Part shown: positions 1,776-54,347 of the stretch, piece after piece
How positions within the stretch are numbered: position 1 is the stretch's first letter
Layout: the number at the start of each line of letters is the position of its first letter
From: Tubulanus polymorphus
Lineage: Eukaryota > Animalia > Nemertea
Reading direction: 5' to 3'
DNA length: 64,000 nucleotides
Assembly (NCBI RefSeq): GCF_964204645.1
Contig: NC_134032.1
Coordinates: 6,994,275 to 7,058,274, forward strand
Translations under genes and position numbers: made by a program
The notes under the pieces: model-generated
Databases searched by the model: none
Told to the model about the DNA's origin: nothing
The model's input: the letters and a program-made list of their open reading frames with translations, nothing else

Positions 1776-2860
1776 ATGAAAAAAGAACAATATTTAAGAG
1801 ATTTATATTATAACCCAGAAAGTGAAGTATCATATTCTAACGTTTCAGAATTATGGAATAAAATTAAATCTGATAAAGAAAAAATAAAATATAGTGAATT
1901 AAAATCATGGTTACAAAATCAACCCACATATCAAATTCATAAAAAGATGGATAAAAAATATTTAACAAGAAAAGTAATGGTTTCATATATTGATCAACAA
2001 TGGCAAGCTGATTTAATTGATATGAAAAACTTAGAAGAATATAACAAAGGATATTTCTGGATATTAAATGTTATAGATATATTCAGTAGATACGCATGGA
2101 GTATCCCGATTAAAAATAAAACTGGTATAGAAGTTACAAATTCTTTCAAATTAATATTTAAAGAAGCTATCCCAGATAAAATACAATTTGATGAAGGTAA
2201 AGAATTTTATAACAAACATTTCAAAAAACTATTATCTGATAACGATGTAGAATATTTTTCAACGCATTCAGATAAAAAAGCATCTGTTATAGAAAGATTT
2301 AATAAAACATTGAAAACTAGAATGTGGAAATATTTCACCGCTAATGAAACATATAAATATATCGATGTGTTAGATGATTTAGTTAAAGGTTATAATTATT
2401 CTAAACATAGTTCTATAAATATGAAACCTATACAAGCTAGAAAAGAAGAAAATTCAGAAATAGTTTGGAATAATTTATATGGAGCATTTGTTACACATGA
2501 TTTTGGAGAACCTAAATTTAAAATAGGACAACATGTTAGAATTTCTAAATATAGAAAAACATTTTATAAAGGTTATACCCCTAATTTTACTGAAGAAATA
2601 TTTAAAATTAAAAAGATAATATTAACTAAACCATTTGTTTATAAATTGTTTGATATAAAGATGAAGAAATATTAGGTTATTTTTATGAACAAGAATTATC
2701 ATTAGTACCAAATCCAGATGAAATAGAATACAAAATAGAAAAGGTATTAAAAACTAAAACTCTTAAAGGAAAAAAGTATTCTTTGGTGAAATATAAAGGA
2801 TATGATGATAGATTTAATGAATGGATTTTATCTAGTAAAATTAAAAGAATAAATGAATAA
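1776..2860 (+). pseudogene. Retroviral-like (rve) integrase with chromodomain, frameshifted near 2655
   Basis: WQADL, IDIFSRYAW, QFDEGKEF, IERFNKTLK motifs; 1-nt deletion relative to the intact E3 copy detaches the chromodomain. Confidence 0.9.
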
Positions 2861-3464
2861 AGATTTGTTTATATTTGAACCACATAATATGTTAGTTACT
2901 GGAGTAACCAATTGTGGTAAAACACACTTCATATTATATTTATTAGAAACTATTTATAAAAATCATTTTGATAATATAATATTATTCTGCCCAACTTATG
3001 AAATGAATGAAACGTATAATAGAGATATAGTTAAGATAAAAAAGTTTATTATATTAGACCCTAAAACAGTAAAAGATAATTTAGATAATTGTATAAAAAT
3101 TGCATTAGATATTTATAAAGGATCTAATACATTATTTATTATTGATGATTGCGCAAATTTACATGATTCTAAAATTAGAGAAAGTGAGTTATGTTATTTA
3201 GCTTTCTCTGGTAGACATTTTGGGATAACAACATGGGTTTTAAATCAGAAATATAATTCAATTGTGAAAGACTTTAGGGAGAATATAAGATTTCTAGTTT
3301 TATTCTACAACAAAGATAGAAAATCTATGCAACAATCATTGGAAGAAAATCAAATTATACCTCCTGAATTACATGATGAATATATGAATAAATTAAAGAA
3401 TAATAAAGGTTCCAAATTACTTATGAGATTACAATTTCCATATGAATATGAATTTATAAAATAA
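2853..3464 (+). CDS. A32/FtsK-like DNA packaging ATPase
   Basis: Walker A GVTNCGKT, Walker B LFIIDD, GRH motif. Confidence 0.92.
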   Translation: MNKDLFIFEPHNMLVTGVTNCGKTHFILYLLETIYKNHFDNIILFCPTYEMNETYNRDIVKIKKFIILDPKTVKDNLDNCIKIALDIYKGSNTLFIIDDCANLHDSKIRESELCYLAFSGRHFGITTWVLNQKYNSIVKDFRENIRFLVLFYNKDRKSMQQSLEENQIIPPELHDEYMNKLKNNKGSKLLMRLQFPYEYEFIK

Positions 3465-4541: not shown

Positions 4542-5789
4542 TTAATACATAACACTATCTAATTGTGAATTTACAATATTTAATTGCGCGTCAGAGATAA
4601 TATAAATGTGCATTTTAAAATTTTTGATTCCCTTTTTCTTTGTCATGAATAATTGTATTCCATCTTTAGTGTTCTGTAGTTTTTTTCCAGAACCATGTAA
4701 TGAATTATCCTCTGTTGTTCTAAAATCTAACCATAATGCATATTTATTACCGGTATAATAATCAATTTGATTAATGTTACAATTTTCAAATGATTTTATT
4801 TTTTCATTCATAAAATGTTTTTTAATTTCTACCCATTGATCAATCATTCTCATTCCTTGACAAAATATTTTATTTGCTATACCTTCGATAGTTATTTCTA
4901 CTTTTGTTATTTCAGGATTATAATAATTATCAACATTTATTGCACCATTAGTATACGTTCCAATGGTAAAAAATATTAATATACCTTTAATAGATCTTCT
5001 AGGGAAGTTAATATTCTCATTAATTATTTCATCATTTGCATTAATAGTTACAGTTTTAAATTTATCAATATAATCATATAATAATGAAAACCCTTGATTG
5101 TATTGAGTTTGAATTATACTTGAAATATTTTCATCAGTTACCGTATCATATTCTAAACATATATTCGATAATTTATAACTCATATCTTTATTAACGCTAG
5201 ATAATACAATTTCATTTACAGGAGCAAATGTTATCTCAAATATAATATCTTCTTGAATTGCGTATTTATATAAAGGTGCATTATTATTTATCAATTCAAA
5301 ATCTAATGGAATTTTATATTTGCTTCCATATATACTTTTTATCAATTTATCTACATCATTTGTTAATATTGCGCTATTAGCTTCTGATCTTAATTTATTT
5401 TGGTTTTCTGATTGGATTCCTTGAAATATCATATTATTTCTATTTTCTTTAGTTAACCATAAATCTTTGTAATGCATAAATAAATTATAATCATCTAATG
5501 AGAAAACTGTTTCTGGACCAATCTTTATTGTTAACTTTTTAATCAAATATCTTCCAACATTATCAACGACATAATTATTATTATTACCGATTACTTTTAT
5601 ATCAGCTGATAAATAAATACTATTTGGAACATAAAAAGTATTTTGTGTTAATCTAGGAATTCTAACATATAAAGTTTCATCGGGATTAATATTTGAAGGA
5701 TTATGAGTAATTATATGATGTGATCTTTCTGCTTTAATAGCATTAGATATTCTATGATTCTTCGAAGGACTTATATAACTCCCACTCAT
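4542..5789 (-). CDS. Major capsid protein (double jelly-roll, inferred)
   Basis: 415 aa beta-rich protein, highly conserved between copies; motifs such as KYALWLDFRT...LHGSG resemble Polinton MCPs. Confidence 0.8.
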   Translation of the reverse strand: MSGSYISPSKNHRISNAIKAERSHHIITHNPSNINPDETLYVRIPRLTQNTFYVPNSIYLSADIKVIGNNNNYVVDNVGRYLIKKLTIKIGPETVFSLDDYNLFMHYKDLWLTKENRNNMIFQGIQSENQNKLRSEANSAILTNDVDKLIKSIYGSKYKIPLDFELINNNAPLYKYAIQEDIIFEITFAPVNEIVLSSVNKDMSYKLSNICLEYDTVTDENISSIIQTQYNQGFSLLYDYIDKFKTVTINANDEIINENINFPRRSIKGILIFFTIGTYTNGAINVDNYYNPEITKVEITIEGIANKIFCQGMRMIDQWVEIKKHFMNEKIKSFENCNINQIDYYTGNKYALWLDFRTTEDNSLHGSGKKLQNTKDGIQLFMTKKKGIKNFKMHIYIISDAQLNIVNSQLDSVMY

Positions 5790-11163: not shown

Positions 11164-11505
11164 TTATTCGAAATCTATTTCATGGTGCCCTTTTTCATTC
11201 TTACCTTTGTATACGAAATAGAAATCTCCAGAATATAATTCTTCTAGATCTTCACTTGATAATCTATGAAATCTATCTGGTAAATAAGTTCTGAATTTAT
11301 ATTTATTTCCTTTTAATCCTTCATATTCTAAATGAATTACTAATTTATCTCCATATTTATTAGTAATTGTTTCAATGTTAGTAATTAAATATTTCTTGTG
11401 AATTGTTAACTCAGTTAACTTTTTGAATTTATAATCTACAGATTTGACGCTTGAAGTATCTTTAATTCTATCTAAGAATTCACTGTGTACTTGTTTACTC
11501 TCCAT
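11164..11505 (-). CDS. Small protein next to PolB, possibly an OB-fold ssDNA-binding protein
   Basis: FKKLTEL...NKYGDKLVIHLE...TYLPDRF, beta-rich; orthologue at 32484-32837; function is inferred. Confidence 0.55.
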   Translation of the reverse strand: MESKQVHSEFLDRIKDTSSVKSVDYKFKKLTELTIHKKYLITNIETITNKYGDKLVIHLEYEGLKGNKYKFRTYLPDRFHRLSSEDLEELYSGDFYFVYKGKNEKGHHEIDFE

Positions 11506-11533: not shown

Positions 11534-14500
11534 TTAACACGCTAGAATCCTTTTCATAATCTCATTTTCTTTTGTTTCTTCTCTTTTGAATTTTATATAT
11601 TCATCTAAATTGCAACCATAGGCGACTGTGTGGATTCCATCATCTAAAATATATCTTTTATCATCAAATGGGTTTAGACTTATCTTCTCTATCTCTTCAA
11701 TATACATTTCATGATCTTCAGATCTTAAACATTTCATCTTATGTTTTCTAACTTCTTCATTAAATATACAATTGATGTAATCTTTGAAATGAATATTCTT
11801 TTCAACAACGCTTTTGGTAATTCCTTTTAACTTTTTAGCTTCATGTTCTTTAGTTTTATATGAATACATTTTAGATCTAATACCAATGAACTCTATCATT
11901 TCTTCACCACCTAATTCATCTTTGAATTTACCGGGAACTTTTTTATTATCATTGCTAAACAATTCATGATTTTTAGGATAGTTACTGAAATCAAAATGGT
12001 GTTTTAATGTTTTTAAATCATCAGTTATGTTATCAGTTTTTATCTTTAATATGTAAGAATCTGTATCAAAGTATAGAATTTCTATGTGTTTTTCTCCAAA
12101 ATGGGGTTGTAATATGTTATAGTAAAATTTATACATTAATAACTTTGATAATTCTAAAACCGATGCACCAACATAAATAGGTTTATTGAACTTCATAGAA
12201 GTTCCCCTCATTTTAACTGCTGCTAAATTTTCATCAAATATTCTGTTACCTATAAACTTAGGATATGATTGTAAATGCCTTATCCTTTTACCATTACTAA
12301 CTAACTCAATATCATTTCTATTTCTTATGTTTTCACAAGTCTTACCATAGAATGCATTATTCATTAGTTTGAAGAAATCTTTCTCGAAATCAGTTTTAGC
12401 TTCAGTTCTCTGTGTAGTATTAAAATCTATATATTTTTCTAACCATTTAGATTGACTGAATGAAATATATCTATGTACTTTTTTTAATATCATTCCTTGA
12501 TTCAAATAAAACTTCAACATTCTATAATGTACTACATAATTATATTTATCTTCTTGAGTTACCATTAACTTTTCTGTATGAATATGATTTTCGGGTTTAA
12601 TTCTTTTTTGGTAATTTGATAATTCTTCATGAGTTACAGTTTTATGTTCGGGACAGTAAGCTAGATTTCTAGATTTGAATTTAATATTTTCAGGGTATTC
12701 TAAATCTACAACGAAGAAGTAACCAGTATCTGAATCATCTGCAATATCTAGAATTCTATTCTTCCAATCAAATTTATCAATTTGTAAAACTTCAGTTATT
12801 TCAAACATCCCATAAGGTTGTGGTTCCATCATTGCCCAACCATAAAGATTATTTGCATCTATGTATAATAATTTATATCCAGGATTATCATTTACATTGA
12901 AATATCTATCACCTAATACACCTGAAACACCTCCTCTTATAGATTTTTCAAATAATAGTAATTGATCTATATTTGTTAACAAATCCATTTTTATATCTGT
13001 AAATTTTAATCCACAATCCCATGTTAATCCTGGTGATGAATAACAATGACAAGGATCAATATTGAAATATTTTAGGTTTACATCTCTAAACCTTTCGAAT
13101 ATATCGGTTAATAATAATACATCTGATTTTAAATATAAATCTACTAATTGCCCATGATTTGTTATTTTGAAATGATTCCAAATATTCAATGTTCTATTAT
13201 AGACTTCATCTTTAACATATTCATTTTTTAATTCATCATAGAATTGTTCTTTCAATAATTCAGTTATTTTAAAATCATTATGATTTTTATAGAAAGAATA
13301 TGGAATAGCGCCTTTATATCTCATTAATTGAAAATCATCATTATTTGGGTAATATTCTTTTAATATCTTTAATTCATCATCAACCAATGATTTTGATAGA
13401 TTGTCTAATGAACTACTTAAAAATCTATATGAATCTATAAATCTTAGACAACCAAATTGGAATGATATATAATTCTCAGATGTTTTAGCTAACATTCTAA
13501 ATTTATAAGTTGGTATTTTATCTTTTGATCTATTTGAATTTAATATTTCTATTTCATTATTAATTTCTTCTATTTTATGACATAACTGTTTGATAAATAA
13601 ATGTGCATCATATCCTGATAGATTATGAAATATAACTGGTACAAAGTTAATTTTCTTAGCTTGTAAGTTACAATTCTCATGTGCAGCGCCTCTAAACTTT
13701 CCATTCAAATGATCATGGTCTCTTACTTTTTTATCTTTATAATTAAATATCTTTTCACAATAATAACATTTATCTGCAAACTCAAATTCTTCTTTATCTT
13801 CTTCTGTCATAATTATTTCTTTATTTGTATTCAATAATTTACTAAATCTTATTTCATATTCAATTAATAAGTCACAAAAATGATTGATAACATTTTCATT
13901 TCTATAATTATAATATTCACTTTCGATTAGTTCTGGATAATTAGATTTAATATATAACCCGAAAGCTGCAGCTGATTGATGAATCTTTTTAATTGTATTT
14001 GTTATTGGTGGTTCATCAGAAAAATCATTTTCATTAAAATTTAATTTCTTTCTTTTATAATATATTTCTTTTCTATCTTGATCAGTTAGTTCTTTATTTA
14101 ATGATTCAAAATCTCCATATATTACAAATGGTACTTTATTTTTGTAATCATATTTTTTGAATTCTAATATTTTATCCTTTTCATTTGGTAAAACTAATTT
14201 ACAATAATCATGATTATCACATAGTTGTTTATGATTTAATAATGTACTTTCATTACTAAATTTATGTAAACATTTTCTACATAGATATATTTTATTATGG
14301 TGATCACTTTCTGTTCTAAAAAATAAATCTATTTGTTTAATCCACATATAATGATTCTCATAATATAGTATATCTATAACATCATTTGAATCATAATCTT
14401 TTGATAGGTATAAAGGTTCTAATGTATAATGTTTAATATTATTTCCTTTTGTATTTGGTAATTTGATTAAATCAAATACATTTATCTTTATATTATTATC

Positions 14501-15568
14501 TCTTTCTATTTTTGGGATGTTTTTAATTCTAACAGGATACTTATCTATCTTATAATTATTTTCAAATTGTTTATAATGAGTTAATCTAAAACTATGTTGT
14601 TTATAATCTTCAACTGGGTGTAAACAACTTATTATAGCCCATAGAAAACATTTTTTATCAAAATTTTGTATGTTTATTACTGCTTTTGTTGTAAATGGTA
14701 ATTTAATATAACTTGTTCCATTTATACTATCATCTTTATAATATGATAAATTATTTTCATCAATTGGTTTTGATTTAGTTAACTTATTATATTTTGTGTT
14801 ATAAACATGTAAAGTTATAAATATTATCTCATCAAATATTAAACCAGATCCTTCAAAATATTTCTCTTCTATTTTAGTTTTTACTTCATTATAACATTTA
14901 TCTAATTTATCATCTATATGTTGTTTAGATATAATATGTTGTGAATGAGAATTTATATTATATATTGGTTTATCTTCAGATTTTATAAACTTTACTTTAA
15001 CTGATATACTAATTTTAGGATATTCAACATCTGTAATTATTTTTATTATTTCTTTCATATTTTCTAAATGTTTTTTATTTTCTTCTATTGTTTTACTTTT
15101 ATGAAATTTAAACTCGATAGCTGCTGGACCAATATCACTTTTAAATGCTTCGGTTATCTCTATATCTTTTTTATTATCTAATGAATTAATATAATTTCTT
15201 ACATCTTCCATGTATGGTCTTTTATTGTTTAATTTATTTTTTATGCTTTTAATTATCTTCTGTTTCTTATCGTTATCATTATCAAAATAATCTTCACCTA
15301 AAATATCATTATTCTTATTTCTAATATGACTTATAGATTTTAAATGTTCATTATAATATCTTTTATCACTGAATGATTGATTACATGTATCACATTTATA
15401 TGTTTCTTTTTCATTCTTTAATTCTTCTAATTTAGTTTCTAATATATCATCTTCATATTCTAGTTTCAATTTATTCTCTAAATGTGTTCTAGTTTTATTG
15501 TGTCTTGCTTTTTGGGATTTATCTATATCGATATTACATGTTGGGCAGTAGTACTTATTTGCTTCCAT
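11534..15568 (-). CDS. polB: Protein-primed family B DNA polymerase (intact, 1344 aa)
   Basis: Exo motifs YGDFES, FHNLSGYDAH, YLKSDV; Pol motifs YIDANNLYG, KLMNNAFYGK, YFDTDS; N-terminal Zn fingers; EndoVII-like CYYC...RDHDH...AHENCN. Confidence 0.96.
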   Translation of the reverse strand: MEANKYYCPTCNIDIDKSQKARHNKTRTHLENKLKLEYEDDILETKLEELKNEKETYKCDTCNQSFSDKRYYNEHLKSISHIRNKNNDILGEDYFDNDNDKKQKIIKSIKNKLNNKRPYMEDVRNYINSLDNKKDIEITEAFKSDIGPAAIEFKFHKSKTIEENKKHLENMKEIIKIITDVEYPKISISVKVKFIKSEDKPIYNINSHSQHIISKQHIDDKLDKCYNEVKTKIEEKYFEGSGLIFDEIIFITLHVYNTKYNKLTKSKPIDENNLSYYKDDSINGTSYIKLPFTTKAVINIQNFDKKCFLWAIISCLHPVEDYKQHSFRLTHYKQFENNYKIDKYPVRIKNIPKIERDNNIKINVFDLIKLPNTKGNNIKHYTLEPLYLSKDYDSNDVIDILYYENHYMWIKQIDLFFRTESDHHNKIYLCRKCLHKFSNESTLLNHKQLCDNHDYCKLVLPNEKDKILEFKKYDYKNKVPFVIYGDFESLNKELTDQDRKEIYYKRKKLNFNENDFSDEPPITNTIKKIHQSAAAFGLYIKSNYPELIESEYYNYRNENVINHFCDLLIEYEIRFSKLLNTNKEIIMTEEDKEEFEFADKCYYCEKIFNYKDKKVRDHDHLNGKFRGAAHENCNLQAKKINFVPVIFHNLSGYDAHLFIKQLCHKIEEINNEIEILNSNRSKDKIPTYKFRMLAKTSENYISFQFGCLRFIDSYRFLSSSLDNLSKSLVDDELKILKEYYPNNDDFQLMRYKGAIPYSFYKNHNDFKITELLKEQFYDELKNEYVKDEVYNRTLNIWNHFKITNHGQLVDLYLKSDVLLLTDIFERFRDVNLKYFNIDPCHCYSSPGLTWDCGLKFTDIKMDLLTNIDQLLLFEKSIRGGVSGVLGDRYFNVNDNPGYKLLYIDANNLYGWAMMEPQPYGMFEITEVLQIDKFDWKNRILDIADDSDTGYFFVVDLEYPENIKFKSRNLAYCPEHKTVTHEELSNYQKRIKPENHIHTEKLMVTQEDKYNYVVHYRMLKFYLNQGMILKKVHRYISFSQSKWLEKYIDFNTTQRTEAKTDFEKDFFKLMNNAFYGKTCENIRNRNDIELVSNGKRIRHLQSYPKFIGNRIFDENLAAVKMRGTSMKFNKPIYVGASVLELSKLLMYKFYYNILQPHFGEKHIEILYFDTDSYILKIKTDNITDDLKTLKHHFDFSNYPKNHELFSNDNKKVPGKFKDELGGEEMIEFIGIRSKMYSYKTKEHEAKKLKGITKSVVEKNIHFKDYINCIFNEEVRKHKMKCLRSEDHEMYIEEIEKISLNPFDDKRYILDDGIHTVAYGCNLDEYIKFKREETKENEIMKRILAC

Positions 15569-15648: not shown

Positions 15649-15916
15649 AGTAATAGGGATAATAGGCTTTCAAGCTAAAGGTTGAACGGGCGGGTGAGTA
15701 AAAATGAAAAACATAAAAATAATTACAATTTCTACTTGAATTAGGAGTGAAACTCATAAAAATGAAAAATTAATTCGAGCGTGTGAGAATTAATTTTTCA
15801 TTTTTATGAGTTTCGCGAGTAATTCAAGTAGAAATTGTAATTATTTTTATGTTTTTTCATTTTTTACGAGCTCGACCGTTCGACCTTTGGCTTGAAAGCC
15901 TATTATCCCTATTACT
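15649..15916. repeat. E1 right terminal fold-back palindrome (268 bp)
   Basis: agtaatagggataataggctttcaagc ... gcttgaaagcctattatccctattact, pairing inward to a loop near 15780. Confidence 0.92.
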
Positions 15917-19388: not shown

Positions 19389-22300
19389 TGTATGCGACAA
19401 ATAAGGAAAATACAGTTAATTTCCCTGTTTTCGGCTTAAATTTGAAGTAGGTGAAAACCTGTTTTCTTTGAATTGAAGTCACGGGAACCACTTAACCTCA
19501 TTTTCAAGCCGGCTTAGAATTGGCGATGTCGTGTTATTATGTCATTGATTTGCACAAAACGGACACCAGTATAATCAAATTCCCATCCTCGATGGCAAGC
19601 GTTTCCAACAACCCAGCAACAGTGAGTTCCGGGAACTCCTTTTGACATGGAATGTCGGAAACGAAGCCTTCGATAAATTCCCGTCTTTCTAATGGCCCAA
19701 TAGGGTCAAATACCGTGATTTACGGATCTGAGAGTTAACGCGGCATTAAAAATTCTAAACCTGCCAGGCAATCGAATTTAAAAACTAGAAAATAAAGAAA
19801 AACTCCCAAAAAAACTATTCTATCTTATATATTACTATTGTTAAGTCCATTACATATAAACCTAAATTGAAACCTCATTAATCAGTGGGTTGTACACTAT
19901 TATCTTTATGATATATTATAATAATCGAAATTTTAAGTTCCAAAACCTGAAACAAAGTTCCCGTAACTATGAAAGTCACAATTATTATAGGGAAGTTACT
20001 TTATCAAATTCTGATAAAGTTACTGTAACAGTAGGCCATGATGGGCGTCAGGAAATAAACAGTCAATCTTTACTACAATGCTGCATTAGTGCTTTGACTA
20101 TTAATATAAATCTCCAACAATAATCTATCGCGATGCTCGCACAAATACCCGTGCCTAAATCCGTATTATCGGGGTATTAAAATGGTCTGATCGCTTTTGT
20201 TTTATATGGCGAATTTATCGATTTCAATCGAAAAATATACCCTAAGCAATTGTTTCTGAAGTATACTTCAGAAACAATATTGTTTATTATTCTCAATTAT
20301 CATTTGATCACTGTCACCTAGAGTTGATAAACAAGGTTCTGAAATAGTAATTCTGATCATAGATCATTTTAGAAACCCGTGGATAATATTTTTCACAACG
20401 GTGTTGAGGAATATGTGTATGTAAAATCAGTGAATTAATGCTAAATAGAAATTATTCATTTTCACGTGACCTTAATTAGCCAATGGTCTAATTCTATGGA
20501 CTGAGTTTCGAATCTAATCAACAACTCGTACTCCTCGAATCAAAATGTCCTCAAGTTATCAATCCTTAAAATGATTCGTGTGCTTCGCTAGCTCAGTACA
20601 CTTTGAAGGGATTACTGTCGATCATCTAGTGCTCAGTAGAAATAGTCAAATCATTATATGTTTTTCTTAATCAAGATGAGAATCATCGATTAACATGTTA
20701 TGAAATTCAATTTGGAAGGGCGAGATTTTCATGTGGCGGATTATTACCCGTTACCCGGATAGACTCACGCTTATCAATCAACAACCGTATTAATGCGTCA
20801 CAAATACACATTCAAAATATATCAGAAAATTTCGTAGACCTGCAATGGGCCCGATAACTAAATTATGTGTATCAATGTATATCATATTTTGTATTATTAA
20901 TCTATATATACAATGTTTGAATTTGAAGGTCAGTATTTGCCTAAAGATGTTCATTGCACATTTTAGACATCATCGTTATTGATAGTGTGGTTTTCCTTTT
21001 TTCTTGCAAGATCTGAAACGAACTGCAGAGATGTATTCGAATTTTCGTAAGTCCATTTTAATTTTAAAGCAGAGTAGCGAATATTGGATCCCGTTGACTA
21101 TTGACCTCCTCAGTTGTTTTTGTTATAGCGTGCTCATGGTGCAACTATGGCGATATCCTCTTGTTTTTGTATAAGGTAACGGGCTTCAATAGAAATGGCC
21201 CAATTTATTTTGGGATGGATTAAAACTAAGTATTCTTGAGCGCTCTTGAGAGCGGCTGAACGATCGTGAACATTAGCAACCCTATAGTTTATACAGTGAG
21301 ACCACCACCTACAGTGTCTCCTATGCGATCTGTATGTAGGTTCATTAGCATAGATTCATCAAATACTGGTTGGACACATGAAAAAATAATTTCTTTACTA
21401 GAATTTAGGGTGTAGGAGTCAGCACTTCAGACCCTATTTTTCATACACTAGTTTTCATTACCGATTATTTCAATCTGTGTCGCAATAGACTTATCGTTTT
21501 CACTATTATGTTAACCATAGCGTGCCTTTATAGTCTATGTGTTAATATTAACTTTCGGACTATTTATTCGTTGAAATCGAGAGCAGAAAATACAGTCAAT
21601 ATGGCTCAGTTATTTCAGAATTTCAAAGTAGGCCTATATAATGACGACGCTAAAAGCCCCAGATCGTTGCTTGCTGTTCAGGTTGAATGGAATTGTTTAC
21701 TGAACTGGAATTTCCTAACGGGATTTTTTATATAAACTGAAGTCTTTTTTTCAAATCCTATAAGTTAATTCTTCAACTGGATGTAATTATATTTCGTCAG
21801 TAATAGAATTCCAGAGCAGACATCAAACCAATACGTCGACCTACCAATAAAAGATGAAACTTGCTTTAACTAGTAATTACTAATTATTATCTTACCTACC
21901 TACATTATAGATATTATTGAAGTTTTCAGTAAAAAAGCCATAACAGAATTCACATTACATGAACCACTACCACAAAATAAGCTTTTCGTCTTATTCCCAA
22001 AGGCACTGGTTCAACACAAATCAGTTATCTATTTTTTACTAGCATGCAAGGCAAAACATTCAAATGTTCTTTGATATATTCTAAATGTATTCTTGATTGC
22101 TTTTATTTCTATTAACGGAATTAATGGAAAGTTGTTTAGCTGAATCACAGTATCGTCTCGCAACTGGATCTTTTATGGCACAGGGTATTATACCTTTTTC
22201 CACTTTCGGGTTATTTTCAAAGTGATTCACAATACACGAGCGGATCTATTGATGTATGATAGTGATGGTGATCGAATTCTAATTTAAGATAATCATGATA

Positions 22301-25300
22301 GCCATATAATAGCTAGAAAAGACATGAGTAGCAAATAATCACGAATATGAGAATGTTTAATGTATACACTGACTTTTAAGTGTTCTTAATATCCAGCAAT
22401 GATGAATAGTGTGTGTATTATTGAAGTTCGTTAGTGTCCATGTGAAGTAGGTATTATCGGATAAACGAAATGGCCTGGTCGCTTTCGGTCTATGTGTTTT
22501 ATGTTCTTATGTTACGGAATCATAAATAAAATAATCTAGTATAGGCCTACAAAGAAAGTCTTTACAGCGGTCAAATGCATGGTCTCGAAGAAAGAGCGCA
22601 CCATGCGAAAGTTACTTACAAATCGTGAATTATCAGGCCAGTAGTAGGCGGCATTGCAACTGATTCGAAATAGTTGTGTTATCACTAAGAAATATCACAT
22701 TTAGATTAATAGTTTTAGCCGGTGCTCGTGGTATTCTGATGCAAGATTGGTGTGATCAGATAAAACCAAATGATATTTCAATTTTCAAATAGTATAGTAC
22801 AATTGGTCGTTTGATTCAATTGTTCATTTTCTTGAAAATAAAAACCCTGATAGAACTGGAAGATGGAAAATCCTCTATGTTAATCCACTAGTTCAAAGCA
22901 AGTTTCGTCTTTCATTGGTAGGTCGACGTATTGGTTTGATGTCTGCTCGGGAATTCTATTTCTGACGAAATAGAATTACATCCAGTTGAAGAATTAACTT
23001 AAAGGATTTGAAAAAAAGATTTTAACGCCTGATTCATAAGTCCTCGTTCAATATCTTCTGATATCGGTCTCATAATCGGGCAACGCATATGGTATAGGAG
23101 CAAACCTCACGGGTTTCAAAGTCCTGAAATAGGCTTTTGAGATCGGAATCGCTGTCGTCATTTTGTTATCGTTTTAATACCTTTAAAATTATTTAGAGCT
23201 TATGTTATCTCTTATTTATTTGGCGTGTCCCTACAAACCCACCACACCTGAAGGGACTGAATTACGGGCTCAGATTTTGAAGTCAAAATTCGGGGTAACA
23301 AACATTCTATTCATGGATTAACGCAGATTCACTGAAATTTCAGTTTATATAAAACATCCCGTTAGGAAATTCCAGTTCAGTAAACAATTCCATTCAACCT
23401 GAACAGCAAGCAACGATCTGGGGCTTTTAGTGTCGTCATTATATAGGCCTACTTTGAAATTCTGAAATAACTGAGCCATATTGTCTGAAGTGCTGACTCC
23501 TACACCCTAAATTCTAGTAAAGAAATTATTTTTTCATGTGTCCAATCAGTATTTGATGAATCTATGCTAATGAACCTACATACAGATCGCATAGGAGACA
23601 CTTTAGGTGATGGTCTCACTGTATAAACTATAGGGTTGCTAATGTTCACCTATTGATGACGATCGTTCAGCCGCTCTCAAGAGCTATCAAGAATTCTTAG
23701 TTTTAATCCATCCCTAAATAAATTGGGCCATTTCTATTGAAGCCCGTTGCATTATACAAAAACAAGAGCATATCACCATAGTTGCACCATGGGCACGCTA
23801 TAACAAAAACAACTGAGGAGGTCAATAGTCAACGGGATCCAATATTCGCTACTCTGCTTTAAAAATAAAATGGACTTACGAAAATTGGAATACATCTCTG
23901 CAGTTCGCTTCAGGTCTTGCAAGAAAAAAGGAAAAACCACACTATCAATAACGATGATGTCTAAAATGTGCAATGAACATCTTTAGGCAAATACTGACCT
24001 TCAAATTCAAACATTGTATATATAGATTAATAATACAAAATATGATATACATTGATACACATAATTTAGTTATCGGGCCCATTGCAGGTCTACGAAATTT
24101 TCTGATATATTTTGAATGTGTATTTGTGACGCATTAATACGGTTGTTGATTGATAAGCGTGAGTCTATCCGGGTAACGGGTAATAATCCGCCACATGAAA
24201 ATCTCGCCCTTCCAAATTGAATTTCATAACATGTTAATCGATGATTCTCATCTTGATTAAGAAAAACATATAATGATTTGACTATTTCTACTGAGCACTA
24301 GATGATCGACAGTAATCCCTTCAAAGTGTTAAAAAGCGATAAATTCGCCATATAAAACAAAAGCGATCAGACCATTTTAATACCCCGATAACACTGATTT
24401 AGGCACGGGTATTTGTGAGAGCATCGCGATGGATTATTGCTGGAGATTTATAATAAAATTCAGAGCACTCATGCAGCATTGTAGTAAAGATTGACTGTTT
24501 ATTTCCTGACGCTCATTGTGGCCTATAGGCCTACACAAGAATGGAGATCAGATGAAATGAAGTCCTGTCATTCAACCAAACGGATATTCAATTAATTTCA
24601 TTAATAAAGAAGCAAACAAAACTAAAGAAATAAAATCGTTTCTTTGACAGAATTTGAACTTGGACCCTGAATGCTTTGTTTTGCACACACTCAGCTGCTA
24701 ACAAAATAAACAACGGTTTGTTTGGCTATTGCGCATGCAGTGACGTCATTGTAGTGTATAATACTAATTCTTGTGGTTTTTATTGGAGGTTGGAAAATAA
24801 ATGCGCTTACACTCTACAAATATGTTTTACACTCTATCAAGCATCAGAATTTGATAAAGTAACTTCCCTATATTAATTGTGACTTTTATAATTACGGGAA
24901 CTTTGTACCAGGTTTTGGAACTTAAGATTTCGATTGTTATAATATATTATAAAAAGATGTATAGTGCAACCCACTGGAGGTTTCAATTTAGGCCTAGAAT
25001 AGTTTTTTTGAGTTTTTCTTTATTTTCTACTTGATTTAAATTCGATTGCCTGGCAGGTTTAGAATTTTTAATGCTGCGTTAACTCTCAGATCCGTAAATC
25101 ACGGTATTTGACCATATTGGGCCATTAGAAAGACGGGAAATTATCGAAGGCTTCGATTCCGACATTCCATGTCAAAATGAGTTCCCGGAACTCACTGTTG
25201 CTGGGTTTTTGGAAACGCTTGCCATCGAGGATGGGAATTTGATTATTCTGGTGTCCGTTTTGTGCAAATCAATGACATAATAACACGACATCGCCAATTC

Positions 25301-25428
25301 TAAGCCGGCTTGAAAATGAGGTTAAGTGGTTCCCGCGGCTTCAATTCAAAGAAAACAGGTTTTCACCTACTTCAAATTTAAGCCGAAAACAGGGAAATTA
25401 ACTGTATTTTCCTTATTTGTCGCATACA
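19389..25428. repeat. ~6-kb imperfect palindrome (arms ~19389-21874 and ~22887-25428)
   Basis: Blockwise reverse-complement identity, e.g. tgtatgcgacaaataagg (19389) with ccttatttgtcgcataca (25428), and 20600-21430 with 23483-24328. Confidence 0.9.
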
Positions 25429-25624
25429 CCCTTTTTTATGATAAACTACATCATGAACTTTAATATGCGTTGTAGTGTCGAACTCTGAGAAATAGTTACT
25501 CGTTATAATGAATTGTTTACTAATGTTCTTTTTCAGGATTTGTTCTAGAGGTATCAGCGGGATATTCACGAGTTGGTTTAAATTCAAAATTTCGGGACGA
25601 AATTTAAACTGGATAGGAAGTGTT

Positions 25625-26013
25625 AGTAATAGGGGTAATAGGCTTTCATACCAAAGGTCGAACGGTCGAGTTCATTAAAAACAAAACATTAAAAGTAATT
25701 TAAAACTATAATATATTTTCATAACCGTGTGTATTTTATATTATAACTAAATATTTATTCTAAGATATCAATAATTTAAAAAGCATATTATATTAAATCA
25801 ATTGGTCGCTCCACTTCGCTACCGCTCCGCGACCAATTGATTTATTTACAATACACAAATTCATATAATCAAATATATTCAAATAATAATAATATTCAAC
25901 TGAAATACACACGGTTATGAAAATATATTATAGTTTTAAATTACTTTTAATATTTGTTTTTAATGAACTCGACCATTCAACCTTTGATATGAAAGCCTAT
26001 TACCCCTATTACT
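25625..26013. repeat. E2 left terminal palindrome (duplicated at 27818-28206)
   Basis: agtaataggggtaataggctttcata ... tatgaaagcctattacccctattact; central aattggtcgc...gcgaccaatt. Confidence 0.92.
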
Positions 26014-26221
26014 CTTAAAATATTCATATATATATGAATAACATTTAAATTGACAGATTATTCAATATAAAAGTATATATTAACAACATTATTTCAATAT
26101 TCATATTTGTGTGAGTTAGATGTTTAAACATTAAAAGTGTTAGTAAAGTGTGATTGAAATAATACATGATATAAATCATTGAACTTCTAAAATCAATTTT
26201 TAAAAAAAATTTGATATTAAA

Positions 26222-27496
26222 ATGGAAGCAAATAAGTACTACTGCCCAACATGTAATATCAATATAGATAAATCCCAAAAAGCAAGACACAATAAAACTA
26301 AAACACATTTAGAGAATAAATTGAATATAGAATATAAAGATGATATATTAGAAACTAAATTAGATGAATTAAAGAATGAAAAAGAAACATACAAATGTGA
26401 TATATGTTATCAATCATTCAGTGATAAAAGATATTATAATGAACATTTAAAATCTAAAAGTCATAATAGAAATAAGATTAATGATATTTTAGGTGAAGAT
26501 TATTTTGATAAAGATAATGATAAGAAACAGAAGACAATTAAAAGCATAAAAAATAAATTAAACAATAAAAGACCATACATGGAAGATGTAAGAAAATATA
26601 TTAATTCATTAGATAATAAAAAAGATATAGAGATAACCGAAGCATTTAAAAGTGATATTGGTCCAGCAGCTATCGAGTTTAAATTTCATAAAGGAAAAAC
26701 ATTAGAAGAAAATAAAAAACATTTAGAAAATATGAAAGAAATAATAAAAATAATAACTGATGTTGAATATCCTAAAATTAGTATATCAGTTAAAGTAAAG
26801 TTTATAAAATCTGAAGATAAACCAATATATAATATAAATTCTCATTCACAACATATTATATCTAAACAACATATAGATGATAAATTAGATAAATGTTATA
26901 ATGAAGTAAAAACTAAAATAGAAGAGAAATATTTTGAAGGATCTGGTTTAATATTTGATGAAATAATATTTATGACTTTACATGTGTATAACACAAAATA
27001 TAATAAGTTAACTAAATCAAAACCAATAGATGAAAATAATGTATCATATTATAAAGAACCAGATATTGAAGCATCGAGTTATATTAAACTACCATTTAAA
27101 ACTAATGCTGAAATAAATGTACAAAATTTTGATGATAAATGTTTTCTATGGACAATTATAAGTTGTTTACACCCAACAGAAGATATTACACATAGTTTTA
27201 GATTAACTCATTATAAACCATTTAAAAATAATTATAAGATAGATAAGTATCCTGTTAGAATTAAAAACATCCCAAAAATAGAAAGAGATAATAATATAAA
27301 GATAAATGTATTTGATTTAATCAAATTACCAAATACAAAAGGTAACAATATAAAGCATTATACATTAGAACCTTTATACCTATCAAAAGATTATGATTCA
27401 AACGATGTTATAGATATATTATATTATGAGAATCATTATATGTGGATTAAACAAATAGATTTATTTTTTAGAACAGAAAGTGATCGCCAATTCTAA
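26222..27496 (+). pseudogene. polB: Truncated 5' polB created by the tandem duplication
   Basis: Near-identical to 28415-29678, then runs into flanking DNA. Confidence 0.9.
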
Positions 27497-28414
27497 GCCG
27501 GCTTGAAAATGAGGTTAAGTGGTTCCCGCGGCTTCAATTCAAAGAAAACAGGTTTTCACCTACTTCAAATTTAAGCCGAAAACAGGGAAATTAACTGTAT
27601 TTTCCTTATTTGTCGCATACACCCTTTTTTATGATAAACTACATCATGAACTTTAATATGCGTTGTAGTGTCGAACTCTGAGAAATAGTTACTCGTTATA
27701 ATGAATTGTTTACTAATGTTCTTTTTCAGGATTTGTTCTAGAGGTATCAGCGGGATATTCACGAGTTGGTTTAAATTCAAAATTTCGGGACGAAATTTAA
27801 ACTGGATAGGAAGTGTTAGTAATAGGGGTAATAGGCTTTCATACCAAAGGTCGAACGGTCGAGTTCATTAAAAACAAAACATTAAAAGTAATTTAAAACT
27901 ATAATATATTTTCATAACCGTGTGTATTTTATATTATAACTAAATATTTATTCTAAGATATCAATAATTTAAAAAGCATATTATATTAAATCAATTGGTC
28001 GCTCCACTTCGCTACCGCTCCGCGACCAATTGATTTATTTACAATACACAAATTCATATAATCAAATATATTCAAATAATAATAATATTCAACTGAAATA
28101 CACACGGTTATGAAAATATATTATAGTTTTAAATTACTTTTAATATTTGTTTTTAATGAACTCGACCATTCAACCTTTGATATGAAAGCCTATTACCCCT
28201 ATTACTCTTAAAATATTCATATATATATGAATAACATTTAAATTGACAGATTATTCAATATAAAAGTATATATTAACAACATTATTTCAATATTCATATT
28301 TGTGTGAGTTAGATGTTTAAACATTAAAAGTGTTAGTAAAGTGTGATTGAAATAATACATGATATAAATCATTGAACTTCTAAAATCAATTTTTAAAAAA
28401 AATTTGATATTAAA

Positions 28415-31400
28415 ATGGAAGCAAATAAGTACTACTGCCCAACATGTAATATCAATATAGATAAATCCCAAAAAGCAAGACACAATAAAACTGAAACACA
28501 TTTAGAGAATAAATTGAATATAGAATATAAAGATGATATATTAGAAACTAAATTAGATGAATTAAAGAATGAAAAAGAAACATACAAATGTGATATATGT
28601 TATCAATCATTCAGTGATAAAAGATATTATAATGAACATTTAAAATCTAAAAGTCATAATAGAAATAAGATTAATGATATTTTAGGTGAAGATTATTTTG
28701 ATAAAGATAATGATAAGAAACAGAAGACAATTAAAAGCATAAAAAATAAATTAAACAATAAAAGACCATACATGGAAGATGTAAGAAAATATATTAATTC
28801 ATTAGATAATAAAAAAGATATAGAGATAACCGAAGCATTTAAAAGTGATATTGGTCCAGCAGCTATCGAGTTTAAATTTCATAAAGGAAAAACATTAGAA
28901 GAAAATAAAAAACATTTAGAAAATATGAAAGAAATAATAAAAATAATAACTGATGTTGAATATCCTAAAATTAGTATATCAGTTAAAGTAAAGTTTATAA
29001 AATCTGAAGATAAACCAATATATAATATAAATTCTCATTCACAACATATTATATCTAAACAACATATAGATGATAAATTAGATAAATGTTATAATGAAGT
29101 AAAAACTAAAATAGAAGAGAAATATTTTGAAGGATCTGGTTTAATATTTGATGAAATAATATTTATGACTTTACATGTGTATAACACAAAATATAATAAG
29201 TTAACTAAATCAAAACCAATAGATGAAAATAATGTATCATATTATAAAGAACCAGATATTGAAGCATCGAGTTATATTAAACTACCATTTAAAACTAATG
29301 CTGAAATAAATGTACAAAATTTTGATGATAAATGTTTTCTATGGACAATTTTAAGTTGTTTACACCCAACAGAAGATATTACACATAGTTTTAGATTAAC
29401 TCATTATAAACCATTTAAAAATAATTATAAGATAGATAAGTATCCTGTTAGAATTAAAAACATCCCAAAAATAGAAAGAGATAATAATATAAAGATAAAT
29501 GTATTTGATTTAATCAAATTACCAAATACAAAAGGTAACAATATAAAGCATTATACATTAGAACCTTTATACCTATCAAAAGATTATGATTCAAACGATG
29601 TTATAGATATATTATATTATGAGAATCATTATATGTGGATTAAACAAATAGATTTATTTTTTAGAACAGAAAGTGATCACCATAATAAAATGTATCTATG
29701 TAGAAAATGTTTACATAAATTCAGTAATGAAAGTACATTATTAAATCATAAACAATTATGTGAAAATCATGATTATTGTAAATTAGTTTTACCAAATGAA
29801 AAGGATAAAATATTAGAAATAAAAAAATATGATTACAAAAATAAAGTACCATTTGTAATATATGGAGATTTTGAATCATTAAATAAAGAATTAACTGATC
29901 AAGATAGAAAAGAAATATATTATAAAAGAAAGAAATTAAATTCTAATGAAAATTATTTTTCTGATGAACCACCAAAAACAAATACTATTAAAAAGATTCA
30001 TCAATCAGCTGCAGCTTTCGGGTTATATATTGAATCTGATTATCCAGAACTAATTGAAAGTGAATATTATGATTATAGAAATGAAAATGTTATCAATCAT
30101 TTTGTGACTTATTAATTGAATATGAAATAAGATTTAGTAAATTATTGAATACAAATATAGAAATTATAATGACAGAAGAAGATAAAGAAGAATTTGCGTT
30201 TGCAGATAAATGTTATTATTGTGAAAAGATATTTAATTATAAAGATAAAAAAGTAAGAGACCATGATCATTTGAATGGAAAGTTTAGAGGCGCCGCGCAT
30301 GAGAATTGTAACTTACAAGCTAAGAAAATTAACTTTGTACCAGTTATATTTCATAATCTATCAGGATATGATGCACATTTATTCATCAAACAGTTATGCC
30401 ATAAAATAGAAGAAATCAAAAATGAAATAGAAAGATTAAATTCAAATAGATCAAAAGATAAAATACCAACTTATAAATTTAGAATGTTAGCTAAAACATC
30501 TGAGAATTATATATCATTCCAATTTGGTTGCCTAAGATTTATAGATTCATATAGATTTTTAAATAGTTCATTAGATAACTTATCAAAATCATTAGTTGAT
30601 GATGAATTAAAAATATTAAAACAACATTACCCAAATAATGATGATTTTCAATTAATGAGATATAAAGGCGCAATTCCATATTCATTTTATAAATCACATA
30701 ATGATTTAAACATAACTGAATTATTGAAAGAACAATTCTATGATGAATTAAAAAATGAATATGTTAAAGATGAAGTAGATAATAGAACATTGAATATTTG
30801 GAATCATTTCAAAATAGAAAATCATGGACAATTAGTAGATTTATATTTAAAATCAGATGTATTATTATTAACGGATATATTCGAAAGGTTTAGAGATGTA
30901 AACCTAAAATATTTCAATATTGATCCTTGTCATTGTTATTCTAGCCCAGGTTTAACATGGGATTGTGGATTAAAATTTACAGATATAAAAATGGATTTGT
31001 TAACAAATATAGATCAATTACTATTATTTGAAAAATCTATAAGAGGAGGAGTTTCAGGTGTATTAGGGGATAGATATTTCAATGTAAATGATAACCCTGG
31101 ATATAAGTTATTATATATAGATGCAAATAATTTGTATGGTTGGGCAATGATGGAACCACAACCTTATGGAGTATTTGAATTAACTGAAGTTTTACAGAAT
31201 GAAAATAATGATAAATTTGATTGGAAGAAAAGAATTCTAGATATTGCAGATGATTCAGATACTGGTTACTTCTTTGTTGTAGATTTAGAATATCCTGAAC
31301 ATATTAAATTTAAATCTAGAAATCTAGCTTACTGTCCCGAACATAAAACTGTAACTCATGAAGAATTATCAAATTTCCAAAAAAGAATTAAACCTGAAAA

Positions 31401-32454
31401 TCATATTCATACAGAAAAGTTAATGGTAACTCAAGAAGATAAATATAATTATGTAGTACATTATAGAATGTTAAAGTTTTATTTGAATCAAGGAATGGTT
31501 CTAAAAAAAGTACATAGATATATTTCATTTAGTCAATCTAAGTGGTTAGAAAAATATATAGATTTTAACACCAAACAGAGAACTAAAGCTAAAACTGATT
31601 TCGAGAAAGATTTCTTCAAGTTAATGAATAATGCATTCTTTGGAAAAACTTGTGAAAATATTAGAAATAGAAATGATATTGAGTTAGTTAGTAATGGTAA
31701 AAGAATAAGACATTAACAATCATATCCTAAGTTTTTAGGTAACAGAATATTTGATGAAAATTTAGCCGCAGTTAAAATGAGAAGAACATCAATGAAATTT
31801 AATAAACCAATCTATGTTGGCGCTTCAGTTTTAGAATTATCAAAATTCCTAATGTATGAATTCTATTATAATATATTACAACCACTTTTTGGAGAAAAAC
31901 ATATAGAAATATTATATTTTGATACTGACAGTTACATATTAAAGATAAAAACTGATAACATAACTGATGATTTAAAAACATTAAAACATCATTTTGATTT
32001 CAGTAATTATCCTAAACATCATGAATTGTTTAGCAATGATAATAAAAAAGTTCCCGGTAAATTCAAAGATGAATTAGGTGGTGAAGAAATGATTGAATTC
32101 ATTGGTATTAGATCTAAAATGTATTCATATAAAACTAAAGAACATGAAGCTAAAAAGTTAAAAGGAATAACCGAAAGTGTAGTAGAAAAGAATATTCATT
32201 TCAAAGATTACATCAATTGTATATTCAATGAAGAAGTTAGAAAACATAAGATGGGATGTTTAAGATCTGAAGATCATGAAATGTTTATTGAAGAAATTGA
32301 AAAGATAAGTCTAAACCCATTTGATGATAAACGATATATTTTAGATGATGGAATTCATACAGTTGCTTATGGTTGTAATTTAGATGAATACTTAAAATTT
32401 AAAAGAGAAGAAACAAAAGAGAACGAGATACTGAAAAGAATTCTAACGTGTTAA
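28415..32454 (+). pseudogene. polB: pPolB of E2 (frameshift near 30100, stop at 31714)
   Basis: Three ORF fragments colinear with E1 PolB. Confidence 0.93.
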
Positions 32455-32483
32455 TCAAATTTTAATAAAAATATGTATTATAA

Positions 32484-32837
32484 ATGGAGAGTAAACAAGC
32501 ACACAGTGAGAACAACAAATTATTTCTAGATAGAATTAAAGATATAACAAATGTAAAATCTGTAGATTATAAATTCAAAAAGTTAACAGAATTAATAATC
32601 CATAAGAAATATCTAATTACAAGTATTGATACAGTTACTAACAAATATGGAGATAAATTAGTTATACACTTAGAATATGAAGGATTAAAAGGAAATACAC
32701 ATAAATTCAGAACATATTTACCAGATAGATTTCATAGATTATCAAGTGAAGATCTAGAAGAATTATGTTCTGGAGATTTCTATTTCGTATACAAAGGTAA
32801 GAATGAAAAGGGGCATCATGAAATAGATTTCGAATAA
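32484..32837 (+). CDS. Putative ssDNA-binding protein (E2)
   Basis: Orthologue of 11164-11505. Confidence 0.55.
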   Translation: MESKQAHSENNKLFLDRIKDITNVKSVDYKFKKLTELIIHKKYLITSIDTVTNKYGDKLVIHLEYEGLKGNTHKFRTYLPDRFHRLSSEDLEELCSGDFYFVYKGKNEKGHHEIDFE

Positions 32838-32854
32838 GAAAATATGTAAAATAA

Positions 32855-33608: not shown

Positions 33609-33625
33609 TTTTTTTCACTATATAA

Positions 33626-34179: not shown

Positions 34180-34203
34180 ATGCGTAATTATTTTACTAAA
34201 TAA

Positions 34204-34629: not shown

Positions 34630-34645
34630 TTTTTTTGCTAAATAA

Positions 34646-42959: not shown

Positions 42960-43637
42960 TCATTTCGGATCCTTGATATCAAATTCCTCAACATATTGTT
43001 CATTATTTGGATCATTGTTCCATTGATCAATAAATTTCTTTGCCTTTGTTAACTGTTCTAAATATAACTGTAAATCTAGTTTATTAGATTTGATTTGATT
43101 TTCTTTCTTTTCTAAAGGCCTTAAATTTTTCCAACCCCAAATAAGTTTTTTATTGTATTCATCATTCATGTTAAATTTAGATATTGGTAACACGTGATCA
43201 ATATGGTAATAATCCCCATAATTATCTATATTCATTTTATCATCGAATTGAAATATAATCCATGATTTGAGAAATTCATCTGAACAACCCAATAAATTAG
43301 ATAGTGTTTCTGAATGTGTTTCTTTGTTGAATAATCGTGTTAATCTAGATCTTAAGCATTGTTTCAATCTAAAATTAAGATCTGTTTGATATCTTTCTCT
43401 CATATATTCTGCCATATAATAATTAAAATGTTCTATATTATCTTCTCGGTATTGTTTGGTATATAGTTTAGTACAAGTTTTACAGCAATATTGAAAACCA
43501 TCTTTGCTAATCTTACGCTTATTAAATTCTGTTATAGCTAATTTATCTAATTCACATTTAGAACACATCTTGTAGTATATATTTTTGACGCCAGTGTTAT
43601 TTGTAATATTGATAGTTTGTGGTTGTTCTGATTCCAT
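42960..43637 (-). CDS. HNH-family endonuclease with N-terminal CxxC pairs (NCLDV-like)
   Basis: CSKC...CKTC; YHIDHVLPIS...NLRPL...NQIKSNK. Confidence 0.8.
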   Translation of the reverse strand: MESEQPQTINITNNTGVKNIYYKMCSKCELDKLAITEFNKRKISKDGFQYCCKTCTKLYTKQYREDNIEHFNYYMAEYMRERYQTDLNFRLKQCLRSRLTRLFNKETHSETLSNLLGCSDEFLKSWIIFQFDDKMNIDNYGDYYHIDHVLPISKFNMNDEYNKKLIWGWKNLRPLEKKENQIKSNKLDLQLYLEQLTKAKKFIDQWNNDPNNEQYVEEFDIKDPK

Positions 43638-43659: not shown

Positions 43660-44255
43660 AAATTGATTTTAGAAGTTCAATGATTTATATCATGCATTAT
43701 TTCAATCACACTTTACTAACACTTTTAATGTTTAAAAATCTAACTCATACAAATATGAATGTTGAAATAATGTTGTAAATAAATACTTTTATATTGAATA
43801 ATCTGTCAATTTAAATGTTATTCATGTACATGATTATTTTAAGAGTAATAGGGGTAATGGGCTTTCATATCAAAGGTATGGTCGAGTTCATTAAAAACAA
43901 ATATTAAAAGTAATTTAAAACTATAATATATTATATTCATAACCGTGTGTATTTCAGTTGAATAATAGAATAATTATTATTATTAAAATATATTTGATTA
44001 TATGAATTTGTGTATTGTAAATAAATCAATTGGTCGCGGAGCGGAGCGGTAGCGAAGTGGAGTTTATTTTGAAGTTTATTTTTTTAATATAATATGCTTT
44101 TTAAATTATTGATATCTTAGAATAAATATTTAGTTATAATATAAAATACACACGGTTACGAAAATATATTATAGTTTTAAATTACTTATAATGTTTTGTT
44201 TTTAATGAACTCGACCGTTCGACCTTAGGTATGAAAGCCTATTACCCCTATTACT
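43660..44255. repeat. E2 right TIR, including terminal palindrome 43844-44255
   Basis: Reverse complement of 25625-~26200. Confidence 0.92.
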
Positions 44256-53933: not shown

Positions 53934-54347
53934 AGTAATAGGGGTTTAGTTGTTTCATACCAAAGGTCGAAAGGTCGAGCCCATTAAAAAACAAAATATT
54001 AAAAGTAATTAAAAAACTATAATATATTTTCATAACCGCGTGCATTTTATATCAAAACTAAATATTTATTCTAAGATATCAATAATATAAAAAGCATATT
54101 GTATTAAATCAATTGGTCGCTCCACTTCGCTACCGCTCCGCTCCGCGACCAATTGATTTAATTACAATACACAAATTCAAATAATCAAATATATTCAAAT
54201 GATAATAATTATTCTATTATTCTATTATTCAACTGAAATGCACGCGGTTATGAAAATATATTATAGTTTTTTAATTACTTTTAATATATGTTATTAATGA
54301 ACTCGATCATTAAACCTTTGATATGAAACAACTAAACCCCTATTACT
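53934..54347. repeat. E3 left terminal palindrome (414 bp)
   Basis: agtaataggggtttagttgtttcata ... tatgaaacaactaaacccctattact. Confidence 0.92.

Follow-up and report, generated by a model that had tools for sequence, protein, structure and literature searches.

Polarised terminal palindromes in a Polinton family of Tubulanus polymorphus and in distant relatives

A Polinton family and its genomic setting

The window, a 64,000-nt stretch of contig NC_134032.1 of the nemertean Tubulanus polymorphus, contains three copies of one AT-rich element family, here designated E1 (up to 15916), E2 (25625–44255) and E3 (from 53934), and their features are listed in Table 1. The family belongs to the Polintons (Mavericks). 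E2 has TIRs of about 600 bp, and its AGTAAT tip and target-site duplication (TSD) correspond to the AG tip and 6-bp TSD by which Polintons are recognised, while E1 carries the protein-primed polymerase (pPolB), rve integrase and A32-type packaging ATPase expected of such elements. PolB motifs are visible in the translation of the 1344-aa ORF of E1; with this ORF as the query, Pfam returned no PolB match, and 2820 homologs were retrieved at E<=1e-30, some of them with PF03175. The polymerase of E2 is interrupted at several places. Genes run inward from both TIRs and converge in the middle of the element.

Table 1. Features of the three element copies (positions are those of the window)
Feature	Position	Strand	Remarks
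rve integrase (E1)	1776..2675	+	PF00665, E 4.8e-9
A32-type packaging ATPase (E1)	2853..3464	+	PF04665, E 6.8e-11
Candidate DJR capsid ORF (E1)	4542..5789	-	ESM Atlas 0.97-0.98 to viral clusters; Capsid_N / DJR-like on 10-24% of members
113-aa ORF after pPolB (E1)	11164..11505	-	Possible phi29-type SSB, weak lead only (score 0.85; 44% of members carry the family)
pPolB, 1344 aa (E1)	11534..15568	-	EndoVII-like insert aa 588-636; predicted terminal-protein-like domain ~aa 130-256
E1 pPolB-side terminal fold-back, 268 nt	15649..15916	-	Different, near-perfect palindromic core
E2 TSD, AGTGTT, 6 bp	25619..25624; 44256-44261		Left copy; right copy
E2 left TIR	25625..26227	+	~600 bp: hairpin and AT-rich stretch reaching pPolB start; 90.7% to 43632-44255
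E2 left terminal fold-back, 389 nt	25625..26013	+	
E2 left outer arm, ~112 bp	25625..25736	+	Mirrored at 1-26 and 64-112; outer-type sequence with two GGTCGA repeats conserved at 27-63
E2 left inner 16-bp stem	25794..25844 (25794-25809 / 25829-25844)	+	Loop of 19 nt, rich in pyrimidines; an AT-rich segment on either side, the two unrelated
E2 left inner arm	25902..26013	+	T for outer-arm C at arm positions 27, 35, 39, 63
Inner-arm T sites of E2 left	25987, 25979, 25975, near 25952		Give G·T on 3'-end strand
Second, identical copy of E2 left fold-back	27818..28206	+	Inside 2,193-bp tandem duplication including host flank
Stand-alone HNH/endonuclease VII-like ORF	42960..43637	-	Directly inside E2 right TIR; phrog_1035
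E2 right terminal fold-back, 412 nt	43844..44255	-	Same polarity; inner stem broken on outer side
E3 terminal fold-back, 414 nt	53934..54347	+	Both arms have a substituted 7-nt block (arm positions 13-19)
E3 copy of stand-alone HNH/endonuclease VII-like ORF	54760-55425		phrog_1035

E1 probably also encodes a double-jelly-roll (DJR) capsid protein, at the level of a lead: the candidate ORF had no match in Pfam, PHROG, NCBIfam or PDB sequences, and the recognition value of its ESM Atlas match is low. An adenain-type protease was not found among the ORFs scanned, a set that took in only some of the small ORFs, and the far end of E1 lies outside the window. The stand-alone nuclease matches phrog_1035 with E-values of 2.8e-16 and 4.3e-19, and has few homologs (n=9).

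Two rearrangements affect the element ends. A head-to-tail duplication of 2,193 bp (25290–27482 and 27483–29675, with two differences) takes in the E2 left end with 335 bp of flanking host DNA on one side and the beginning of pPolB on the other, and is either a recent tandem duplication or an assembly artefact; since the second copy of the E2 left fold-back is part of it, together with host flank, this copy was not counted as independent. In E3, the nuclease-side TIR (54348–54760) continues through about 37 codons (about 110 bases) of the pPolB start, and is followed by a piece of the end of the nuclease ORF and then by the full nuclease ORF, an arrangement that looks like TIR expansion via end-to-end template switching. 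The host spacers (15919–25600 and 44300–53900) hold remains of Gypsy-like and BEL/Pao retrotransposons, nested inverted repeats (19384–25433) and an array with a 31-bp period (50800–53140); the BEL/Pao remains point to an animal host.

Structure, polarity and strand bias of the terminal palindromes

An earlier note on this DNA, made from the letters alone, had described the element termini as palindromes opening AGTAATAGGG and closing CCCTATTACT, and all four were found where it placed them. The outer end of the fold-back is the exact host junction. Folded as single-stranded DNA, the 268, 389, 412 and 414 nt palindromes gave energies of -102.5, -119.9, -89.7 and -115.8 kcal/mol (z of -25.9, -25.0, -17.4 and -31.7, respectively), and none of 100–200 shuffles folded as well as the real termini. 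All four thus fold far beyond their shuffles (z -17 to -32), and the terminal palindromes are real and far beyond chance. Their description as palindromes needs to be refined: only E1 is palindromic over nearly its whole length, and in E2 and E3 the outer stem covers about 112 bp and encloses a 16-bp inner stem between two unrelated AT-rich segments. The core of E1 does differ from the others and is nevertheless palindromic, as had been claimed.

The two arms of each palindrome were compared position by position, numbering from the tip. The mirrored variants of the E1, E2 and E3 arms that the note had quoted are correct, and the arms co-vary at positions 1–26 and 64–112, but not at 27–63, where outer arms are closer to other outer arms than to their own partners. 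The comparison of E2-left with E3 gave 11 columns mirrored between the arms, the 7-nt block at 13–19 among them, four that follow arm position and nine that are private, and the first 50 positions of E1 and E2-left differ in four mirrored columns, one by arm position and eight others. Across positions 27–50, outer arms are separated from each other by 1–4 substitutions, and from their own partners by 3–7. Two GGTCGA repeats are kept in the outer arms and have been lost from the inner arms in different ways, and position 35 is mismatched in E1, E2-left, E3 and the read groups (described below) and deleted in E2-right. Replacement of the 7-nt block in both arms implies copying from arm to arm, while the mismatches that survive between two copied zones suggest that the asymmetry at 27–63 is maintained. 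The mirrored changes therefore support the proposal that the structure is regenerated by fold-back copying, in the sense of upkeep from arm to arm, and the ends of these Polintons are, as judged from their sequences, subject to zoned concerted evolution.

The arm mismatches differ between the strands. Three in E2 had been read as C:A on the 5'-end strand, hence G·T on the 3'-end strand; this is correct (arm positions 27, 35 and 39), and a fourth lies at 63. Five termini (the four described here and that of L121, a distant relative whose arm alignment is loose past position 30) contain 44 arm mismatches, of which 20 are G·T on the 3'-end strand, two are G·T on the 5'-end strand, and the other 22 are transversions that pair on neither strand. 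When the G001 family (below) is added, 16 of 19 distinct transition mismatches from three families form their G·T pair on the 3'-end strand, with a binomial p of 0.004 (a value that overstates independence because mismatch sites share ancestry). The 3'-end strand also gives the better fold in 5/5 termini, by 3.9–11.0 kcal/mol, and the strand difference of six non-terminal palindromes is 0.4–3.2 kcal/mol. The G·T bias could stem from selection, from deamination of an exposed strand or from unrepaired wobbles, and all of the causes considered point to a 3'-terminal strand that is single-stranded or folded. Decay of host CpG was discarded as an origin of the mismatches, since many lie outside CpG and the matching G>A changes are nearly absent.

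The polarity of the palindrome is identical in all four independent termini. It was also followed in raw genomic reads labelled as the same species, covering about 12% of the run, which are short and not phased across the asymmetric core. Reads leaving the arm run into unlike flanks (1521+379 reads, agreement 0.34–0.36), indicating many insertion sites, and the E1-type core is common (685 loose ends). In pooled arms, C is present at position 35 in 56% and at position 47 in 59%. A 66-base stretch that only inner-boundary reads fit recruited 1938 reads, with no drop in depth across the boundary (1915 versus 1916). The four displayed inner-boundary groups that reach the arm (707, 91, 161 and 165 reads; 1,124 in total) are all inner-type by majority, with T as the majority base at position 27 or 28 and at position 35 in every group, and at position 39 in three, although flipped ends may exist as a minority, with the consensus agreeing at 0.84–0.87 and 6 of 35 loose-end rows displayed. 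The position-16 variant is carried by 59% of inner arms and 55% of pooled arms, consistent with mirroring.

Flip/flop isomers of the kind found in poxviruses and parvoviruses, which the earlier note had suggested looking for, did not appear: there is one polarity in the four termini, in the four displayed read groups and in 17/17 tips of the G001 family. Equal flip/flop is unlikely, as termini and read groups behaving as coin tosses would agree in this way about once in 128, and the polarity looks fixed. Flank-joined (1521+379) and interior-joined (about 1916) arm reads occur at roughly 1:1, a rough ratio between differently filtered sets that is weak evidence against many lone palindromes.

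Tip fold-backs in relatives and in other systems

Relatives were collected as 182 pPolB loci (L001–L182), mostly of 26–56% identity, with one at 77%, and most of their contigs lack an element end. A scan of 201 loci for AGT-tipped fold-backs returned three matches, compared with one in shuffles, and only that of L121 is at an element end. This distant Polinton (pPolB identity 35%) has a tip fold-back of 129 nt (5614–5742) situated 150 bp upstream of pPolB, with a z of -10.3 and a 3'-end strand that folds better by 8.9 kcal/mol, and the first 27 bases of its tip resemble the tip of the T. polymorphus family. A second copy was not found in the five genomes searched. The contig was binned as archaeal but is probably eukaryote DNA that was placed there wrongly. 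More generally, 71 loci (L112–L182) that encode the same type of Polinton polymerase come from prokaryote genome bins, and these are probably eukaryotic contamination.

A third family, G001 (L212–L228), consists of 23–24-kb elements with pPolB-like fragments, an integrase and TG-type tips. Its tip hairpin is 62 nt long and has the same polarity in all 17 tips; the 3'-end strand folds better in each of them, and each has a G·T at position 15 beside mirrored neighbours. A compensatory change is found between tip variants, and a target duplication was not seen in the three paired ends.

Other elements are without such a structure. L048, which is complete (1–15051) and has AGTAGT tips, shows no tip fold-back (z -1.2 and -0.1), so a hairpin is not required in all Polintons; its pPolB carries the EndoVII insert, which weakens the proposal that the EndoVII domain is dedicated to resolving the hairpin. 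The TIRs of L048 also contain telomere-like (TTAGGG) runs. TIRs without a tip fold-back were found in L003, L020 and L027, and only short tip fold-backs in L207, the true tip position being uncertain in all four. Several candidate termini were discarded: L142 is an insertion into an integrase-like gene, the palindromes of L112 and L209 are not at a mapped end, and the internal repeats of L122 and G001 are low in complexity or repeat arrays. Tip-motif scans of viral contigs gave no match, and a locus search with a single protein found no relative. On this comparison of sequences, the tip fold-back is recurrent in pPolB elements, being present in three distant families, yet it is not universal, and its presence does not follow that of EndoVII.

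The T. polymorphus family shares its pPolB, rve integrase, A32 ATPase, probable DJR capsid, TIRs, AGT-type tip and 6-bp TSD with adintovirus-like Polintons that have an HNH/EndoVII insert in pPolB, as described in the part of PMC8097293 available to us. It differs from described Polintons in having a polarised palindrome as the outer 270–410 bp of each TIR. The main texts of four surveys of animal Polintons (PMC8097293, PMC10748475, PMC8502044 and PMC11131425) contain neither 'palindrom' nor 'hairpin' (0 occurrences), and the accessible portions of PMC11296320, PMC6431247 and 10.1101/2022.05.25.493380 hold nothing relevant to palindromes at Polinton ends. According to the part of a 2026 report that was available (bioRxiv 10.64898/2026.07.28.741278), the endogenous virophages of Halocafeteria seosinensis (subtypes 1, 2, 5 and 6) and PLV subtype 4 have palindromes in their TIRs adjoining the TSD, 52 nt long in a figure and preferentially in elements without pPolB. 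The likeness is a TIR palindrome next to the TSD, whereas the palindromes described here are 268–414 nt long and belong to a pPolB element; the available part of that report speaks neither of co-variation by zones nor of a fixed polarity or a G·T bias between strands, all of which were seen here. The novelty implied by the earlier note thus stands for the four animal surveys, but terminal palindromes have been reported from protist virophages and PLVs. Contrary to the suggestion of the 2026 report, such palindromes are not confined to protist elements lacking pPolB. What is new at these Polinton ends is concerted evolution in zones, along with a polarity that looks fixed and a wobble bias that is strand-specific and common to three families.

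Terminal hairpins are known from several other replicons. Those of poxviruses and asfarviruses are AT-rich, incompletely paired and covalently closed, and occur as flip and flop isomers, whereas the palindromes studied here, in integrated copies and short reads only, are open duplexes of one polarity joined to host DNA. In the adenovirus panhandle, the displaced strand re-forms a duplex origin for protein priming by pairing end-to-end over the whole genome, while here pairing would be local, within each end. The ends of AAV and B19 occur as flip/flop. The likeness to parvovirus telomeres lies in a terminal fold-back of similar size within a TIR, and the left end of MVM is likewise asymmetric and of a single orientation; because its arms differ in a conserved way, just one of them serves as an origin, and resolution of the junction is asymmetric (PMC1185569, available part). 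Unlike parvoviruses, the present family is an integrated dsDNA element with its own protein-primed polymerase and the same hairpin at both ends, and no HUH nickase was found. Of the features of a rolling-hairpin replicon, it has the terminal fold-back; an HUH/Rep nickase was absent from 22 ORFs scanned with Pfam, and a single polarity was seen in place of flip/flop isomers, with a minority isomer possible.

Possible roles of the fold-back

To our knowledge, the replication of Polintons and their exit from the chromosome have only been modelled, never shown. Whichever reading is right, the function of the fold-back is one that we infer from sequence patterns. A hairpin closing at the terminal base, its polarity, the protected outer motif and the G·T bias would together tell which strand is single-stranded and where the origin lies.

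Our preferred explanation, held tentatively, is that the 3' end of the displaced strand folds back and rebuilds a duplex origin for terminal-protein priming. pPolB would copy from one end and displace a single strand, and the 3' palindrome of this strand would snap back, protecting the end and re-forming the origin locally, so that the predicted terminal-protein/polymerase could restart at the folded end without the far end or a nuclease. Protein-primed synthesis would begin on the outer arm and read through the loop, giving the same polarity and no flip/flop. Chew-back and re-extension of the folded 3' end, together with template switches between arms, would copy changes from arm to arm, and the same end repair or template switching could create new cores such as that of E1. 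Selection would keep the GGTCGA repeats intact in the outer arm, with degradation in the inner arm through changes that pair as G·T, and their restriction to the outer arm would mean that the terminal copy alone acts as the origin.

Such a local rebuilding of the origin would be the simplest scheme to give fixed polarity, a 3'-strand bias and arm copying without a nuclease. The structure model of the pPolB N-terminus contains a confident beta/alpha domain (about aa 130–256), which Foldseek matches best, at E about 2e-3 and in no case at E<=0.001, to little-finger domains of the Y family, and Polinton terminal proteins are described as having the Y-family little-finger fold in the available part of PMC11071308. 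Streptomyces telomeres may serve as a working precedent, by analogy, since their 3' single-stranded end folds back and is used for repair, followed by terminal-protein priming (PMC5449611, available part); they differ in having several short palindromes with internal initiation and end patching, in place of one long hairpin with presumed initiation at the end. Against the proposed rebuilding of the origin, a 3' end paired at a primer-template junction would also be ideally suited to simple extension, in competition with protein priming. Deamination on an exposed strand, rather than selection, might moreover account for the G·T excess, and the E3 right end, with its stretch of pPolB start, suggests that long-range, end-to-end copying also occurs.

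Self-priming by the folded 3' end, with one-sided resolution, is unlikely. The hairpin would here prime the second strand, and the hairpin or dimer junction would be cut on one arm by HNH/EndoVII, leaving one orientation. The size and mismatched arms recall parvovirus ends, and the asymmetric resolution of MVM shows that fixed polarity is compatible with this scheme, which fits the arm asymmetry equally well. Two HNH/EndoVII-type domains are encoded, one of them directly inside the right TIR, and hairpin priming has been proposed for protist virophages and PLVs (bioRxiv 10.64898/2026.07.28.741278, available part). However, the 22 ORFs scanned yielded no nickase, a terminal-protein-like domain is predicted in pPolB, and EndoVII is present in the pPolB of the hairpin-free L048. 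In the 77% relative (L032), whose contig begins inside pPolB, the stand-alone nuclease is located after pPolB, a placement more like that of a mobile endonuclease. We see only a small chance that a branch of protein-primed Polintons, animal ones included, has parvovirus-like asymmetric hairpin telomeres, with 3' self-priming, G·T pairs marking the active origin arm and one-sided resolution by HNH/EndoVII. Such a mode, if true, would combine protein priming with rolling-hairpin replication in a double-jelly-roll virus lineage, in three distant families.

Quite unlikely is a role as an excision signal, in which the chromosomal palindrome would extrude as a cruciform, or fold on a looped-out strand, and be cut by EndoVII or the integrase to free the element. 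Long AT-rich palindromes extrude readily, four-way junctions are resolved by T4 endonuclease VII, and the fold-back ends exactly at the host junction. A cruciform, however, pairs both strands and should give no one-strand G·T preference, diagonal cutting predicts leftover lone palindromes whereas flank- and interior-joined reads are about equal, and L048 has EndoVII without a hairpin.

It is very unlikely that the palindrome is a functionless by-product, made and refreshed by fold-back copying errors at free ends, with deamination as the source of the G·T bias. C>T and A>G, as seen in the inner arm, are the spectrum of single-strand deamination, the new core of E1 indicates that palindromes can arise afresh, and L048 manages without a hairpin. 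Unselected copying should nevertheless erase mismatches everywhere, but those at position 35 and at position 15 of G001 persist beside mirrored neighbours, and the fold-back is present in three families. A G·U-rich hairpin in an outward transcript of the 3'-end strand, terminating transcription or feeding small-RNA silencing, is highly improbable even though G·U bias is a classic mark of RNA structure, as the genes point inward from both TIRs, so that mRNA on that strand never reaches the ends, and the stem closes precisely on the last base, a feature relevant to the ends of DNA.

The frequent lack of Polinton ends in short-read assemblies may also be due to such fold-backs. Inward of the hairpins, the TIRs vary in length: a segment of about 126 bp (26046–26171) occurs at the two ends of E2 but in neither E1 nor E3, and reads of this region have several skips of 126–157 bases, so the family segregates for TIR length. 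Just inside the hairpin, E1, E2 and E3 have a short AT run that is complementary to itself (26020–26037 in E2) and varies by 2-base units, with two bases missing in 746 of 1805 reads.
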